From Chloroflexota bacterium (GTDB lineage: Bacteria > Chloroflexota > UBA11872 > VXOZ01), in contig OZ219802.1 in NCBI GenBank assembly GCA_964291655.2, positions 736,001-800,000 on the forward strand: 64,000 bases of DNA, written 5' to 3'. How positions within the stretch are numbered: position 1 is the stretch's first letter; each line of letters starts with the position of its first letter. Below the pieces are notes generated by a model. The model saw only the letters and a list, made by a program, of their open reading frames with translations. It ran no database searches and had not been told where the DNA came from. The translations under genes and the position numbers were made by a program. Positions 10,174-63,950 of this stretch are shown here, one piece after another.

Positions 10174-10917
10174 CTAGTCAGTGGGGTGCATCGCGCCTTC
10201 CCGGGCACGCCAGACATGGTAGAGCAAAATTGAACCGGCCACGGCGGCGTTGAGGGACGCCACCCGACCTGTCATAGGAATATGCACGCGGTAGTCGCAC
10301 GCGCGCCGGATCAGCGGGCGCAGCCCCTTGTCCTCGCTACCCACGACGACTACTACCGGCCAATCGTAGTCCAGCGTATCGTACTGAGTTTCCCCGGCGG
10401 GGTCGAGGCCCACAATCCAGATGCCTCGTTTTTTGTACCACGCCAATGTGCGCATGAGGTTCGTGACTGAGCACAGTGCCAGGTGTTCTACGGCGCCACT
10501 CGATGCGCGTGCTACGGTCGTACTTGCCGCAACACTGCGGTCTTTGGGCAATGCCACGCCATGCACGCCCACGGCCTCCGCCGTACGCAGCAATGATCCG
10601 AGATTCTGCGGGTCTTGCAGATGGTCGAGGGCCAAGAGAAATGGCATCTGGCCGCGTTGCTCAGCAATGGCCAGTGGATAGTCCAGAGAGTGCAACGTGC
10701 GCTCGGGAAAGCGCGCGGCGACGTTTTGGTGGTGACTGCTGTGGCAGATATTCCCTAAGTCCTGCCGCGTGACCTGCCGGGCATTCACCCCGCTCGTCCC
10801 AGCCAGGGCGACAATCTCGCCCAGACCCTTCGCCCCTGCCACCACCCATACAGAATCGGGTACGCGTCCCGCGCGCAATGCTTCCCGCACCGGATGAAAG
10901 CCAAACAGTAATTCCAC
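10174..10917 (-). CDS. rlmB: 23S rRNA (guanosine-2'-O)-methyltransferase RlmB, SPOUT family
   Basis: DPQNLGSLLRTA, GSEDKG, IPMTGRVASLNAAVA. Confidence 0.93.
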   Translation of the reverse strand: MELLFGFHPVREALRAGRVPDSVWVVAGAKGLGEIVALAGTSGVNARQVTRQDLGNICHSSHHQNVAARFPERTLHSLDYPLAIAEQRGQMPFLLALDHLQDPQNLGSLLRTAEAVGVHGVALPKDRSVAASTTVARASSGAVEHLALCSVTNLMRTLAWYKKRGIWIVGLDPAGETQYDTLDYDWPVVVVVGSEDKGLRPLIRRACDYRVHIPMTGRVASLNAAVAGSILLYHVWRAREGAMHPTD

Positions 10918-11074
10918 AACACGTCCTTAGGTGAATCTCATACTAACGCTACGGCTTAGTATAGAATGAGAGAAGGAATGCGACTATGTGGCTGACCGTG
11001 AGTCTTGAACGACGCAGCCTGGAATCCGCGCTCGTTCATGCAGGACATGCTCTTGTTGCAGTGTGCTAGAGTTA

Positions 11075-11240
11075 CCGTTCGCGCTGAGCCTACCTGTCCT
11101 GAGCACTTCGACAAGTTCAGCGCAGGCTTGATGAAGGGTCGAAGCGCAAGAACTCAGAAGACCGTTCGTCCTTAGCAACGAAAATCTCTTCCTCTCCACC
11201 CATCGACATGCTCAGAGCCTGCCCCGTACTCGATTCAGCA
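11075..11240. repeat. Triple-nested REP-like element plus a second interrupted copy
   Basis: ccgttcgcgctgagcct[acctgtcctgagc[acttcgacaagttcagcgcaggc]ttgatgaagg]gtcgaagcg at 11075-11146; atgctcag|agcctgccccgtactcgat with junction at 11215/11216. Confidence 0.8.
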
Positions 11241-11365
11241 TTTCGAGACGCTGCGGGGGTGGTCGGAATCGGTGCAGTGAAATGCTACGAGACACGGTCA
11301 GCGGATAGATCCGTTGGAACTCGTCTGCGCGAAAAGACCAGGCGGAATGGACAGCGGGAAACTTC

Positions 11366-12142
11366 ATGATAATTGACGTCCACGTGCACATTCGCTCCAT
11401 GCCGATGCTGGAGCGCGCGTTGCGTCAGGCCGATCAGCTCGATATGATTCTTTGCCTCAACAGCATCAACCTGGAAGGTAGCAGTTCGCCGAATTCTCCT
11501 TCACGGCAGTTTGTGTCTGATTGCAACGACCGTACCGCCCAGGTTGCTGCCGCAAACCCCAACCGTGTTATCCCCATGTGGTACTTAAATCCTGCTCACG
11601 GCCGGTTTGCCGTTGACGAACTGGAGCGGCGGGTGGCAGAACATCGCGGCCCTCAGGGAGTGAAACTCTGGACAGCGGTCAAGGCAAATGACCCCCGCGT
11701 TGATCCTATCTTTGCCGTGTGCGCCGCCTACCGGCTGCCGGTGTTGCAGCATTCGTGGATGGAAGTTACGGGCAATCTCCCGGGCGAGACCGATCCCTTC
11801 GACATGCGCGCCGCCGCCTTGCGTCACCCGAATGTGAACTTCTTCTGGGGTCACGCCAGCGGCGACGTGGAGTATACGGTCAAACTGGCCTGCGGGCTGC
11901 CGAACATCTATCTGGACATCGGCGGCTGCGAGGCAACCAACGGCTATACGGAGATGCTCGTCAAGTACGTCGGCGCCGATCACATCGTTCAAGGCAGTGA
12001 CGGCACCGGCCGCTCGTTTACCTCGCAACTCGCGAAAGTATATGGAGCAGATATCTCTGCAGGGCAGAAAGATCGAATTCTCTACAAGAATGCGCAAGCC
12101 GCCTTCGCGCAGCAGCCTCACAGTCACACACTCTTGGCATAA
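11366..12142 (+). CDS. Amidohydrolase family protein (TIM barrel)
   Basis: IIDVHVH metal motif, GVKL, PVLQH, GH, GSD, ILYKNA. Confidence 0.88.
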   Translation: MIIDVHVHIRSMPMLERALRQADQLDMILCLNSINLEGSSSPNSPSRQFVSDCNDRTAQVAAANPNRVIPMWYLNPAHGRFAVDELERRVAEHRGPQGVKLWTAVKANDPRVDPIFAVCAAYRLPVLQHSWMEVTGNLPGETDPFDMRAAALRHPNVNFFWGHASGDVEYTVKLACGLPNIYLDIGGCEATNGYTEMLVKYVGADHIVQGSDGTGRSFTSQLAKVYGADISAGQKDRILYKNAQAAFAQQPHSHTLLA

Positions 12143-17048: not shown

Positions 17049-17136
17049 CCCTTCGACAGGCCTGTACTGAGCTTGTCGAAGTGCTCAGGACGAACGGAAA
17101 AGGCATAAAACCGTTCGTGCTGAGCTTGTCGAAGCA
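17049..17136. repeat. Inverted pair of REP-like elements, left copy carrying a 23-nt insert
   Basis: cccttcgacag[gcctgtactgagcttgtcgaagt]gctcaggacgaacgg followed by ccgttcgtgctgagcttgtcgaagca. Confidence 0.85.
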
Positions 17137-44798: not shown

Positions 44799-44831
44799 AC
44801 CGAGATCGATCGGGAGCGCGGCGTTCACTTA

Positions 44832-45108
44832 CCTTTCGCACAGAGCCCGTCGCGGGGCGCGCTCACTCTCCGTTCACACTGAGCCCGTCGCAGTGCGGTC
44901 CAGCTGCCAGAGGCAGCGACCTCCCTCCGTTCGCGCTGAGCCTGTCGAAGTGCAGTCCAGCTGGCAGGCGGCAGTCACCCTCTGCCTCACGGACCCAGTC
45001 GCGGGGCGCGATCTCCCTCCGTTCGCGCTGAGCCTGTCGAAGTGCAGTCCAGCTTCCAGACGCAGCGATCTCCCTCCGTTCGCGCTGAGCCTGTCGAAGT
45101 GTGAACGG
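44832..45108. repeat. Tandem array of about 5 REP-like units (57-nt basic period) between convergent pyrF and uvrC
   Basis: ccgttcgcgctgagcctgtcgaagtg at 44927, 45019 and 45076; degenerate copies at 44870 and 44832; linkers related to each other. Confidence 0.88.
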
Positions 45109-45121
45109 ACATGGGCAGGAG

Positions 45122-47005
45122 CTACAGATGCTCCTTGACCTTCTCCGCCACCGCGCGGTTCATTTTCGGCGCCCCGGCCAAGACCTCGACGGACGCCTGC
45201 CGAATAGCATCCACGCTCCCAAAGTGCTGCAGCAAAGCTACTTTCCGCTTCGTGCCGATGCCCGGCACCTTGTCAAGCAAAGATCCAAGCGTATGTTTGG
45301 TGCGCACGGTGCGATGGTACGTAACGGCGAAGCGGTGCGCTTCATCGCGGACACGCTGCAATAGCTTCCGTGCCTCAGATCGCTCCTCTAGCTCGATTGG
45401 CTTAGATTCTCCAGGTAGAATGATTTCTTCACGCTGCTTCGCAAGCCCCAGCACGGGTATGTCGTGCAATGCGAGATTCGCCAGCACTTCCAAGACAGCA
45501 TTCAGTTGCCCCTTGCCGCCGTCTATCACCAGCAGGTCGGGCTTTATGCCCCAGGAGTCCAGCGCGTCCGCCTCGTCTTGCCCGTCTTGTTCGTTATGTT
45601 TACCTGTTTCCTCTTCGGCCCTTAAGTCACTCAGGCGCTTCAGCCGCCGTGTGAGCATTTCCTGCAAACTCGCATAGTCGTTGGGGCCGTCTACGGTCTT
45701 GATGCGGAAGCGGCGGTAATCGCCAGTGCTGGGGAGACCGGTAACGAACACCGCCATAGCGCCAACCGTATACGCGCCCTGGATATTCGAGATGTCGTAA
45801 CACTCGATGCGCACCGGTGCTTGGTCCAGATCGAGCACGTCAGCCAATTCGGTGAGGGCTACCTGCGCCCGTTGCTGGCTGTCGAGGTGCCGCAGACGGT
45901 GGTCCTGCAGGCCCTGGCGGGCGTTGTTTCCCGCTAACTCGACCAAGCGGCGCTTCTCCCCAATCTTTGGCACATTTAAGGTCACGCTGCCGCCGCGCCG
46001 TTCCCGCAGCCACGTGCGGAGCAACTCAGCGCCGCGAATACCGACCGGCAGGAAGAGCGCCTGCGGTATCTGCATACTGCGACCGTAGAACTGCTGCAGA
46101 AAGTCCCGTATCACGTCGCGGTCTTCCTCGTCAGACACGTGTTCAAGGATGAAATTCTCACGCCCGAGTAGGTGGCCGCCGCGAATACTGAAGACTTGCA
46201 CGCACGCCTCATCCTGCTCGCGCGCGAAACCAATGACATCAATGTCTCCCTGGCGAATATTGGTGATCTTCTGGCGCTCGAGAACGCGCTCAACCGCCCG
46301 GATGCGGTCGCGCATCACCGCTGCGCGTTCGAATTCCAGCGCATCCGACGCTTCGCGCATGTCACCGCGGAGGTTCCGAATTACGTCGCCCGGCCTTCCT
46401 TCAAGAAAGCGGGTGACCTGTTCGATGATCCCCCCGTACCCCTCTTGGGTAACTGCCCCGATGCACGGACCCGCGCAGCGCTTGATGTGATAGTCCAGGC
46501 ACGGCCGTTCATACTCTTTGTCCATATTCAGCGCACAGGACCGATAGGGGAAGAGCCGATTGAGCAGGTTCATGGTGTCGCGCAGGCTATAGGCGCTGGT
46601 ATACGGTCCATAGTAGCTTGCGCCATCATCCAGTATTCGCCGTGTTGTCAACACACGGGGATAGCGCTCATTGAGGGTGATCTTGAGGTAGAGAAACGAT
46701 TTGTCGTCGCGCAGCACCACGTTGTAGCGCGGCCGATGGTGCTTGATAAGATTACTCTCCAGCACCAAGGCTTCAATTTCCGTATCGGTAATGATGTAAT
46801 CGAGCGTCTTGGCATTCTCCACCATGCTCCTGGTCTTCCAGGGCAACCGGTCCTGCCGGCCAAAGTACGAGCGCACACGGTTACGGAGCAGCTTTGCCTT
46901 ACCCACATAGAGCACCGTGCCCTTGCCGTCACGAAAGAGGTAGCACCCCGGCAACAATGGGATAGTAGCCATCCGCTCGCGGATTTCTTTGACCGGAATC
47001 GACAC
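45122..47005 (-). CDS. uvrC: Excinuclease ABC subunit C
   Basis: GCY..LYVGKA..LRNRVRSYF GIY-YIG, PRYN, FERAA, RIECYDIS, IDGGKGQ, RDEAHRFA, HhH; GTG start with GGAGA RBS. Confidence 0.97.
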   Translation of the reverse strand: MSIPVKEIRERMATIPLLPGCYLFRDGKGTVLYVGKAKLLRNRVRSYFGRQDRLPWKTRSMVENAKTLDYIITDTEIEALVLESNLIKHHRPRYNVVLRDDKSFLYLKITLNERYPRVLTTRRILDDGASYYGPYTSAYSLRDTMNLLNRLFPYRSCALNMDKEYERPCLDYHIKRCAGPCIGAVTQEGYGGIIEQVTRFLEGRPGDVIRNLRGDMREASDALEFERAAVMRDRIRAVERVLERQKITNIRQGDIDVIGFAREQDEACVQVFSIRGGHLLGRENFILEHVSDEEDRDVIRDFLQQFYGRSMQIPQALFLPVGIRGAELLRTWLRERRGGSVTLNVPKIGEKRRLVELAGNNARQGLQDHRLRHLDSQQRAQVALTELADVLDLDQAPVRIECYDISNIQGAYTVGAMAVFVTGLPSTGDYRRFRIKTVDGPNDYASLQEMLTRRLKRLSDLRAEEETGKHNEQDGQDEADALDSWGIKPDLLVIDGGKGQLNAVLEVLANLALHDIPVLGLAKQREEIILPGESKPIELEERSEARKLLQRVRDEAHRFAVTYHRTVRTKHTLGSLLDKVPGIGTKRKVALLQHFGSVDAIRQASVEVLAGAPKMNRAVAEKVKEHL

Positions 47006-61764: not shown

Positions 61765-62039
61765 CGTCACTCCGGCGAGAGCCGGAGTCCAGACAACAAC
61801 CGGCGGAAGAGAAGATGGATTCCCGCCTACGCGGGAATCACCATGGCCTTGCCCAGGCCGCACAAGGGAATGAAAGTGAGTTCCGATATCTCCGTTCGTG
61901 CTGAGCACTTCGGCAAGCTCAGTACAGGCTTGTCGAAGCATGAACGGAGAGATGAGTGTCGCAAGCTCTTAACCGCTTCCGCCGCTCACCCTTCGACGAT
62001 GCTCAGAGCCTGCCCCGTACCGGATACGGGGGCGAACGG
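61765..62039. repeat. Composite repeat cluster: CGTC-type REP pair plus two interrupted REP-like elements
   Basis: cgtcactccggcgagagccggagtccag / tggattcccgcctacgcgggaatcac; ccgttcgtgctgagc[23 nt]ttgtcgaagca; cccttcgacgatgctcag[24 nt]ggcgaacgg. Confidence 0.85.
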
Positions 62040-63628: not shown

Positions 63629-63950
63629 TGTCATTTCGAGCGCAGCGAGAAATCTAGAACTCCATGCACTCCAGTGGTTCAACAACTTAGTCCTAAAGCA
63701 TAGCCGAACTTAGCGCGATACCTCGATAACGTCGCGTACGGCGCAGGTCGCAAACATGTCCTGAGCACTTCGGCAGGCCTGTGCTGAGCCTGTCGAATGG
63801 CCTGCGCTACCGGATGCCTGGCAGCGACCCCAGGGTCCGCGCCATGTATCAGCACTCCGCCGGTCACATCGTAGCGCGGGGGCTTGTCCCCCGCCTGGAA
63901 TGGAACCTAATGCGCTGAAGCCGATAGATTCCCGTCTACGCCGGTATGAC
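63629..63950. repeat. Composite repeat cluster (CGTC-type, GTAG-type and nested modules)
   Basis: tgtcatttcgagcgcagcgagaaatct; gcgcaggtcgcaa[...]cctgcgctac; gtagcgcgggggcttgtcccccgc; tagattcccgtctacgccggtatgac. Confidence 0.8.

Follow-up and report, generated by a model that had tools for sequence, protein, structure and literature searches.

The stretch of DNA analysed here (the window, 64,000 nt) contains, at 11075-11146, a hairpin repeat whose loop is split by a 23-nt module, and this module is in turn split by another, inverted 23-nt module. Comparison of the source genome with its relatives shows that the unit is discrete, 23 nt long, has fixed join points and is gained and lost precisely between related genomes. 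We read the locus as three nested levels of a very small insertion unit with a dynamic copy number. That the unit spreads by templated copying of filled alleles is a tentative proposal, in which we place a little less than even confidence.

Structure of the nest

The nest lies in a 448-nt gap between two divergent open reading frames (ORFs), of which one (10174-10917) is on the minus and the other (11366-12142) on the plus strand. Its parts, the empty-state reference and two single-level modules found elsewhere in the window are as follows.

11075..11083, plus strand: outer 5′ stem arm of the hairpin repeat, CCGTTCGCG
11084..11091, plus strand: left half of the outer 15-nt loop, CTGAGCCT, which rejoins with 11138-11144 at 0 mismatches
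11092..11104, plus strand: left part of the direct (D) module, arm ACCTGTC followed by CTGAGC (level-2 D event of the recursive parse)
11105..11127, minus strand: inverted (I) 23-nt module (level-1 I event of the recursive parse)
11128..11137, plus strand: right part of the D module, TTGATGAAG followed by G (partition of the sequence)
11138..11144, plus strand: right half of the outer loop, GTCGAAG (partition of the sequence)
11145..11153, plus strand: outer 3′ stem arm, decayed, CGCAAGAAC against the expected CGCGAACGG (comparison with canonical hairpins)
17060..17082, plus strand: single-level inverted-type module (recursive parse)
44927..44959, plus strand: uninterrupted copy of the repeat, taken as the empty-state reference (more copies at 45019 and 45076)
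61907..61929, minus strand: single-level inverted-type module in a textbook hairpin with both stem arms intact

The letters of the split repeat run ccgttcgcgCTGAGCCT (11075-11091), ACCTGTCCTGAGC (11092-11104), ACTTCGACAAGTTCAGCGCAGGC (11105-11127), TTGATGAAGG (11128-11137) and GTCGAAGcg (11138-11146). The outer loop is interrupted by 46 nt, namely a D module (11092-11104 plus 11128-11137) that holds the 23-nt I module; read on the minus strand, the latter is GCCTGCG-CTGAACTTGTCGAAG-T. An earlier, sequence-only reading of this DNA had described a split repeat with nested 23-nt modules at this place, and we arrived at the same partition, with the intact copies at 44927, 45019 and 45076 present as it had reported. 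Its further statement that removal of the inserts restores each host exactly holds for the outer loop, which becomes CTGAGCCTGTCGAAG with 0 mismatches, but not for the other two levels: the rejoined middle module has 3 mismatches to the genome consensus GCCTGTC-CTGAGCTTGTCGAAG-G, and the inner module (minus strand) has 2 to its own consensus.

The same nest is present in G008, a separately assembled relative that is about 96% identical to the source genome over the region. There it is cleaner, with 1 mismatch in the middle module and 0 in the inner one, and it reads GCCTGTC where the D arm of the focal nest is ACCTGTC. A T-to-A change in the TTGA.GAAG stretch of the D module is common to both genomes, which marks the nest as inherited from a common ancestor. 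When folded, the focal composite is no more stable than shuffled sequence (z = -0.6 and -0.3).

The host hairpin

The source genome (G000) measures 3.47 Mb in two contigs, C1 and C2. The host hairpin consists of CCGTTC-nnn, a conserved 15-nt loop motif, CTGAGCYTGTCGAAG, and nnn-GAACGG. In the window the loop motif occurs in 17 copies against 2.34 expected, a number that 0/100 shuffles reach, and genome-wide there are 251 copies at ≤1 mismatch. The CCGTTC arm stands exactly 3 nt 5′ of the loop in 143 copies genome-wide and the GAACGG arm 3 nt 3′ of it in 38. The triplets between arm and loop vary yet remain complementary (gtg/cac, gcc/ggc, gtc/gac etc.). Folding of the copy at 45073-45108 as single-stranded DNA gives a stem of 11 bp that closes a loop of 11 nt (-7.9 kcal/mol, z = -3.2). 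A search of the whole window with the Rfam 15 covariance models gave only two tRNAs at gathering score, and there were 0 matches at E≤1 in 10950-11300 and 44800-45200.

Relative to replication, the strand ratio is about 2:1 in three classes of repeat: the module (38:24), the hairpin (94:53) and a GTAG-tagged REP (120:60). Because all three have it, the bias is uninformative about the module. The cumulative GC skew of G000 falls monotonically over all of C1 and has its turning points in C2, at about 0.12 and 1.5 Mb; given this course and the fact that most relatives are single contigs of about 3.5 Mb, C1 and C2 look like pieces of one chromosome and not like two replicons.

A 23-nt module with fixed junctions

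We scanned G000 for split loops, allowing any split position and a gap of 1-120 nt, requiring exact halves and excluding the halves of intact loops. Among the 130 events, a gap of 23 nt was the commonest (26/130), followed by 14 and 24 nt with 7 each. The 26 gaps of 23 nt comprised 14 direct inserts, 11 inverted inserts and 1 unrelated sequence. Direct inserts take the form CTGAGCYT / GCCTGTC-CTGAGCYTGTCGAAG-G / GTCGAAG, inverted ones the form CTGAGC / A-CTTCGACAAGCTCAG-TAC-AGGC / YTGTCGAAG. Three parts make up the module: a 6-7-nt arm, (G)CCTGTN, a further copy of the loop motif, and 1-2 closing bases. Since it carries the loop motif it is itself a target, hence the nesting.

A recursive parser, which removes a module only where the flanks rejoin into a loop, found 52 modules in G000: 19 direct and 29 inverted at the innermost level and, after their removal, 3 direct and 1 inverted more. 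The junction falls after loop nt 8 in 21/22 direct modules and after host loop nt 6 in 27/30 inverted ones, with an ambiguity of 1 nt and 2 nt, respectively. At loop hosts, removal of the module restores the loop with no duplicated bases and there is no target-site duplication. The only internal structure of the module is the loop motif with a 1-bp closing pair, and subterminal hairpins are absent. Controls with the reversed pattern gave 0 matches in each genome scanned.

The earlier proposal of a fixed-length unit, inserted precisely into hairpin loops including those of its own copies, is thereby borne out by the excess of 23-nt gaps, the fixed junctions and the 52 modules. In the genome-wide survey of insert lengths and flanks that it had called for, 23 nt is by far the commonest length and there are two fixed junctions.

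Nests with an inverted module inside a direct one were strictly parsed at 3 loci in G000, the focal locus among them. The flanks and stems differ at three further sites with looser copies of the 70-nt composite (C2:2154984, 1590629 and 2143575), and elsewhere in G000 and in its relatives the triple composite of 70 nt is found again at 85-91% identity.

The sequence-only reading took the inverted insert for the same module flipped. Base 7 of the module separates the two, being C in 20/20 direct and 0/29 inverted modules (A or G in 29/29). Direct and inverted inserts are distinct subfamilies, not one module in two orientations.

Three simple origins were tried and rejected. Local duplication or slippage does not explain the direct insert, as host and insert differ at the loop Y base and the closing bases of the insert do not follow the host stem. 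A single-nick rolling-circle (Rep) model would give two tandem complete motifs, L1[L2..L1]L2, and the order found is a nested one, A x A B y B; inspection of the sequences ruled out this model and a polymerase slippage path alike.

Copies in REP hairpins

G000 also contains a GTAG-tagged REP family, GCGCAGGTTGCAAA/CCTGCGCTAC, with 109 uninterrupted copies. Further copies are interrupted at the point marked by the slash: three by 23 nt, one by 24 nt, two by 46 nt and one by 47 nt. The 23-nt insert has the form CNTGTC-CTGAGCCTGTCGAAG-GG. This REP is not homologous to the host hairpin, so the module is a discrete unit that can also occupy a hairpin with no sequence in common with the loop motif. 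The arms are CATGTC or CGTGTC in 6/7 REP-hosted copies and of the CCTGTC type in 20/20 loop-hosted direct modules; the REP-hosted copies form a third module subtype. The left flanks of the three host classes, ..GAGCCT(G), ..CGACAA(G) and ..TTGCAAA, have no common tetranucleotide.

As for the GTAG REP itself, GTAGCGCGGGGGCTTGTCCCCCGC occurs in 180 copies in G000 (≤2 mismatches). One such hairpin, at 63743-63811 of the window, is broken by a 46-nt nest at 63755-63800. In this nest and in one other copy, at C2:1334682, the inner module departs from the usual form in that its last 13 nt are inverted, which looks like a small flip between inverted repeats.

Filled and empty sites in related genomes

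In the relatives, composites were located in G008 (15 direct and 26 inverted) and in G003 (31 direct and 11 inverted), with 0 reversed-control matches. Automatic mapping of 61 composites of relatives to G000 scored 14 sites as filled, 2 as empty and 4 as other; 41 were unscored (21 lacked a 24-nt flank, the flanks of 9 were unmapped and 11 were not collinear), and the conclusions on filled and empty sites rest on collinear cases resolved by alignment.

The focal site is filled in G000 and G008. G013 and G002 have an intact loop here with the same GCG/CGC stem triplet, and G003 has a decayed, uninterrupted loop. The insert of about 25 nt in G004, G005 and G007 is ill-defined.

Other aligned cases include two direct modules that are in G003 and absent from G000 (one of them at G003 C1:2933615), and two 46-nt direct-plus-inverted blocks in G003 that correspond to an intact loop in G000. 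The alignment gap between G003 and G000 is exactly 46 nt at locus L058 and exactly 23 nt at L020. An inverted module is in G008 and absent from G000 twice, at G008 C68:39312 (158 nt against 135 nt in G000) and at L061, and in G000 and absent from G008 once (G008 C64:8214). The differences between these two genomes, which are about 4% apart, go in both directions. Altogether, exact 23- or 46-nt differences between filled and empty sites occur at the focal locus and seven others, and the orthologous empty and filled sites that the earlier reading suggested seeking by alignment do exist.

Orthologs of the neighbouring region at ~11150-11300 show a change of another kind, as whole hairpins are inverted in place between close relatives (L009 versus L006, L007 versus L005). 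A 33-nt hairpin of G014 is the reverse complement of the G012 hairpin bar one base, in flanks that are otherwise collinear.

Distribution across bacteria

A 38-mer query for the direct composite, with four degenerate positions and exact matching, was run against a collection of species genomes and matched in 111 stretches. Among the matches listed, 37/80 lie outside Chloroflexota, and at least a dozen phyla have the composite letter for letter. The carriers outside Chloroflexota include, again among the matches listed, isolates of Acidovorax and Pseudacidovorax, Ramlibacter, Ectothiorhodospiraceae, Propionicimonas, Flavobacteriaceae and Bacteroidales as well as Planctomycetota, Dadabacteria, Desulfobacterota, Omnitrophota, Opitutales, Coleofasciculus and Nostoc, the last with two MAGs. 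The flanking DNA of the matches ranges from 34 to 71% G+C. Both the host hairpin and the direct composite are conserved to the letter across Chloroflexota, Bacteroidota, Cyanobacteria, Actinomycetota and Proteobacteria. Some loci of Bacteroidota and deltaproteobacteria show deeper direct recursion, in which 15-nt left and 8-nt right units are equal in number or off by one.

The complete hairpin was found in >117 stretches of many phyla among the matches listed, and it is present, without annotation, on plasmids of Sphingobium, Comamonas and Moraxella. The inverted composite is almost confined to Chloroflexota (55/58 stretches). Within the class the presence of the module is patchy: it is in 16/16 congeners, and in 1/6 and 1/3 members of two other genera. 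Phage sequences gave only weak matches (E 0.05-0.6).

Possible modes of spread

Under the reading that we tentatively favour, rare illegitimate events would found a filled allele, that is, a direct-in-loop, inverted-in-loop or REP-hosted composite, and filled alleles would then spread by templated copying to empty hairpins of like kind. The copying would take place at the replication fork, where the hairpins become single-stranded: the nascent strand would switch to a filled copy via the conserved loop halves (6-9 nt of homology) and then back. The process would amount to gene-conversion-like homing without an element-specific enzyme.

Templated copying would account for the exact junctions, the self-nesting and the one-step 46-nt differences as well as for the link between subtype and context, which is perfect in G000, and the absence of an associated enzyme gene. 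That link, taken with the difference in range between a lineage-restricted inverted form and a cross-phylum direct form, argues against a single free module landing in either strand; both would be expected if filled alleles were copied into like empty hosts. The inversion of whole hairpins in place between close relatives shows that strand switching happens at these hairpins. Further support for templated copying comes from a change of the loop half that goes with the insert, as the outer-loop Y base differs between the filled and the empty ortholog in 3/5 pairs, a comparison of 5 loci with 13-25% flank divergence at a freely polymorphic site.

Some points speak against templated copying. The homology arms, 6-9 nt with a variable stem triplet beside them, fall short of what RecA-type recombination requires, and the model would therefore need microhomology template switching. 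It leaves without explanation the founding events, the arrival of the same 23-nt unit in a non-homologous REP hairpin and the spread of basic hairpins to about 200 unrelated loci. Within samples, no ongoing movement was apparent either: no contig joint skips 23 or 46 nt, though contigs drop rare variants.

The sequence-only reading held that precise insertion implies a trans-acting site-specific enzyme. Such an enzyme is not implied, because the link between subtype and context is the pattern predicted by copying of composite alleles between like hosts. Enzyme-driven micro-transposition is the chief rival all the same, though one that we rather doubt. A trans-acting enzyme for single-stranded DNA (HUH/Y1 RAYT-like or other) would cut extruded loops at a fixed distance from the stem and paste the module, with internal module bases guiding the target as in IS608; guide bases that set the target would explain why subtype follows context. 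The fixed length, the seamless junctions and the absence of target duplication fit this well, as do the restriction of all hosts to hairpins, the presence of the module in a non-homologous REP hairpin and the placement of direct and inverted modules alike about 7 nt 3′ of the 5′ stem on the module-forward strand. The patchy range within the class is also what a mobile element would show.

G000 has one RAYT-like Y1_Tnp ORF (C2:2523379-2524209, minus strand, 276 aa), which lies outside the window, and Y1_Tnp is found in 17/23 module-positive and 0/18 module-negative relatives. Its restriction to module-positive genomes keeps an enzyme in play, with the proviso that 16 of the 17 belong to one genus. 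Against this, six module-positive genomes have no Y1_Tnp match, including G037, a single contig with 26 module matches, and Y1_Tnp tracks the module only partly among the 41 relatives. Moreover, the flanks of the ORF in G000 hold GTAG REP-like palindromes, and within 1.5 kb of it there is no loop motif. Micro-transposition also has to contend with the lack of a common tetranucleotide in the left flanks of the three insertion classes and of a hairpin in the module itself, and the perfect link between subtype and context demands the extra assumption of a guide.

Nor is a nuclease or transposase gene associated with the module by position. None of the 16 ORFs bracketed by loop motifs encodes one (0/16; they are oxidoreductase, peptidase, sulfatase, lyase etc.). 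In a neighbourhood test, in which 7486 ORFs from 217 loci were clustered, the count among the 22 commonest neighbour clusters was 0/22, all of them being metabolic, transport or signalling. In the 17 genomes of the genus, RVT_1 occurs in 2, TnpB in 0 and IS110 in 9 (it was not found in G000); all three were rejected as module enzymes, as they do not track the module among the 41 relatives examined. Enzymes flanked by these repeats, which the sequence-only reading had suggested looking for, emerged neither from gene neighbourhood nor from co-occurrence, and the RAYT-like gene has GTAG REPs at its flanks instead.

It is improbable, in our judgement, that the module has no mobility of its own and that a few ancient composites of host and insert multiply whole in the manner of MITEs, with the differences between genomes being deletions. 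The recurrence of the 70-nt triple composite at 85-91% identity elsewhere in G000 and in relatives would suit such a history, and so would the REP-hosted composite family with its common flanks and the G026 motif, which forms part of a MITE-like unit of about 120 nt. However, orthologs differ by exactly 23 or 46 nt inside a conserved hairpin, and between G000 and G008 they do so in both directions. Composites also stand in many different complementary stem triplets with unrelated flanks, and the Y-base difference between host and insert means that the insert is not a local duplication.

It is hardly conceivable that the nest results from misassembly or resembles one only by chance. Such repeats do break short-read graphs, and contigs of run X6 end at 11120 and 11140, but three sequencing runs each yield a single contig that crosses 10700-11700 without a gap, and G008, assembled separately, shows the nest again with the common mutation inside it. 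A split 15-mer is expected far below once per genome, and the reversed-pattern controls gave 0. One of the spanning contigs belongs to another study and has about 95.5% identity (45 differences in 1001 positions), which, along with G008, disposes of the artefact that the earlier reading had wished to see excluded.

Comparison with known systems

The earlier reading knew of no named system for such inserts, and in this it overlooked the very small, nested and precisely inserted small dispersed repeats (SDRs) of Nostocaceae. SDR1-8, reportedly described by Elhai et al. in 2008, are said to be dispersed and nested units of 21-27 nt. By our comparison they are the nearest precedent of the 23-nt module. 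The two have in common a very small unit (here 23 nt, with 52 parsed copies), dispersal, precise insertion, nesting and the lack of a known enzyme. Their sequences differ as far as can be told from a comparison by description only. According to excerpts of PMC4390886 and PMC5861425, SDR5 is inserted precisely into HIP1, whereas the host here is a conserved hairpin loop. The excerpts of PMC5861425 also state that no SDR-like repeat was found outside Nostocaceae; if SDRs are restricted in this way, the direct composite differs from them in its occurrence in at least a dozen phyla.

The host hairpin is like REP, BIME and REPIN sequences in being a short intergenic repeat with hundreds of copies and a mosaic of small motifs. 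Unlike REPs, CCGTTCnnn-loop-nnnGAACGG has no GTAG or CGTC tag, and here it is the loop that is conserved and the stem that varies, with compensating changes, the reverse of the situation in REPs. The RAYT-like gene of the genome is not flanked by the host hairpin, which again sets it apart from REP/RAYT systems. Nested insertion of a 23-nt unit is not a known property of REPs.

Elements of the IS200/IS605 family (IS608, ISDra2) use single-stranded hairpin DNA, are excised and inserted seamlessly with no target duplication and rely on internal guide bases. They need subterminal hairpins at both ends and a Y1 transposase, and they insert 3′ of one tetra- or pentanucleotide. The module resembles them in that its hosts are hairpins and its insertion is seamless and free of target duplication; it is unlike them in having no hairpin of its own and in left flanks that differ between host classes.

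Template-switch changes at quasi-palindromes and small hairpin-loop inversions have in common with the present case a replication-linked switching of strands and hairpins inverted in place. In classical template switches, however, a palindrome is corrected or inverted by its own arms, whereas here a fixed 23-nt block would be imported from another locus.

MITEs, in the excerpted text of PMC3733652, measure 70-300 bp and have terminal inverted repeats and target-site duplications. Like them, the module is non-autonomous, multi-copy and nested (MITEs are sometimes nested), but it has no terminal inverted repeats, no target-site duplication and, at 23 nt, not the size of 70-300 bp. A literature search by motif sequence, peptide and keyword, which covered the text of open papers, returned no paper describing the module.

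Significance of the module

Its precise coming and going between related genomes makes the 23-nt module one of the smallest mobile-looking DNA units known. It is possible, although we put this forward with somewhat more reserve than templated copying, that a pan-bacterial, self-targeting module of 23 nt is the smallest mobile DNA known, spreading via the loops of hairpin repeats in at least a dozen phyla with recursion 3-4 levels deep, either by a template-switch homing drive without an element-encoded enzyme or by means of a hairpin-loop-specific transferase for single-stranded DNA.

If the propagation is true, the lower size limit for mobile DNA would be 23 nt, with no coding capacity and no terminal repeats, and hairpin-loop homing would be a mode of spread that genome annotation now ignores. 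Conservation across phyla calls for a universal interacting factor or for frequent horizontal spread. In practice, the inserts are precise presence/absence markers between close strains, and they break short-read assemblies.

Related repeats

A tandem array of about 10 hairpin units of 37-38 nt is located at C2:829579-829930 of G000. Another, at C1:772900-773030, consists of 6 units of 23 nt of a GTGAGC..GAAC variant, in which the first and last loop bases covary.

In G026, a genome of the same class, the loop motif lies within a repeat of ~120 nt at the 20 sampled loci (L185-L204). A diverged, reversed loop-like segment adjoins the loop motif there, and an exact inverted copy is present in 1/20 sampled loci. 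As a whole, this repeat resembles a REPIN or a MITE. A search of G026 for Y1_Tnp gave no match.

Finally, we observed a second micro-module, 'P', a 24-nt sequence (CCCGTATCGAGTACGGGGCAGGCT) with a small hairpin of its own, placed precisely where the 5′ stem meets the loop in the host family. G000 has 7 exact 24-nt cases. The presence of P varies between close relatives, as it is in L003 and absent from L005, and at L061 (G008 C34:~31855) a 58-nt expanded form is in G008 while G000 has none. A decayed copy of P lies at 11195-11262 of the window, about 60 nt 3′ of the focal nest, and contig depth peaks there.
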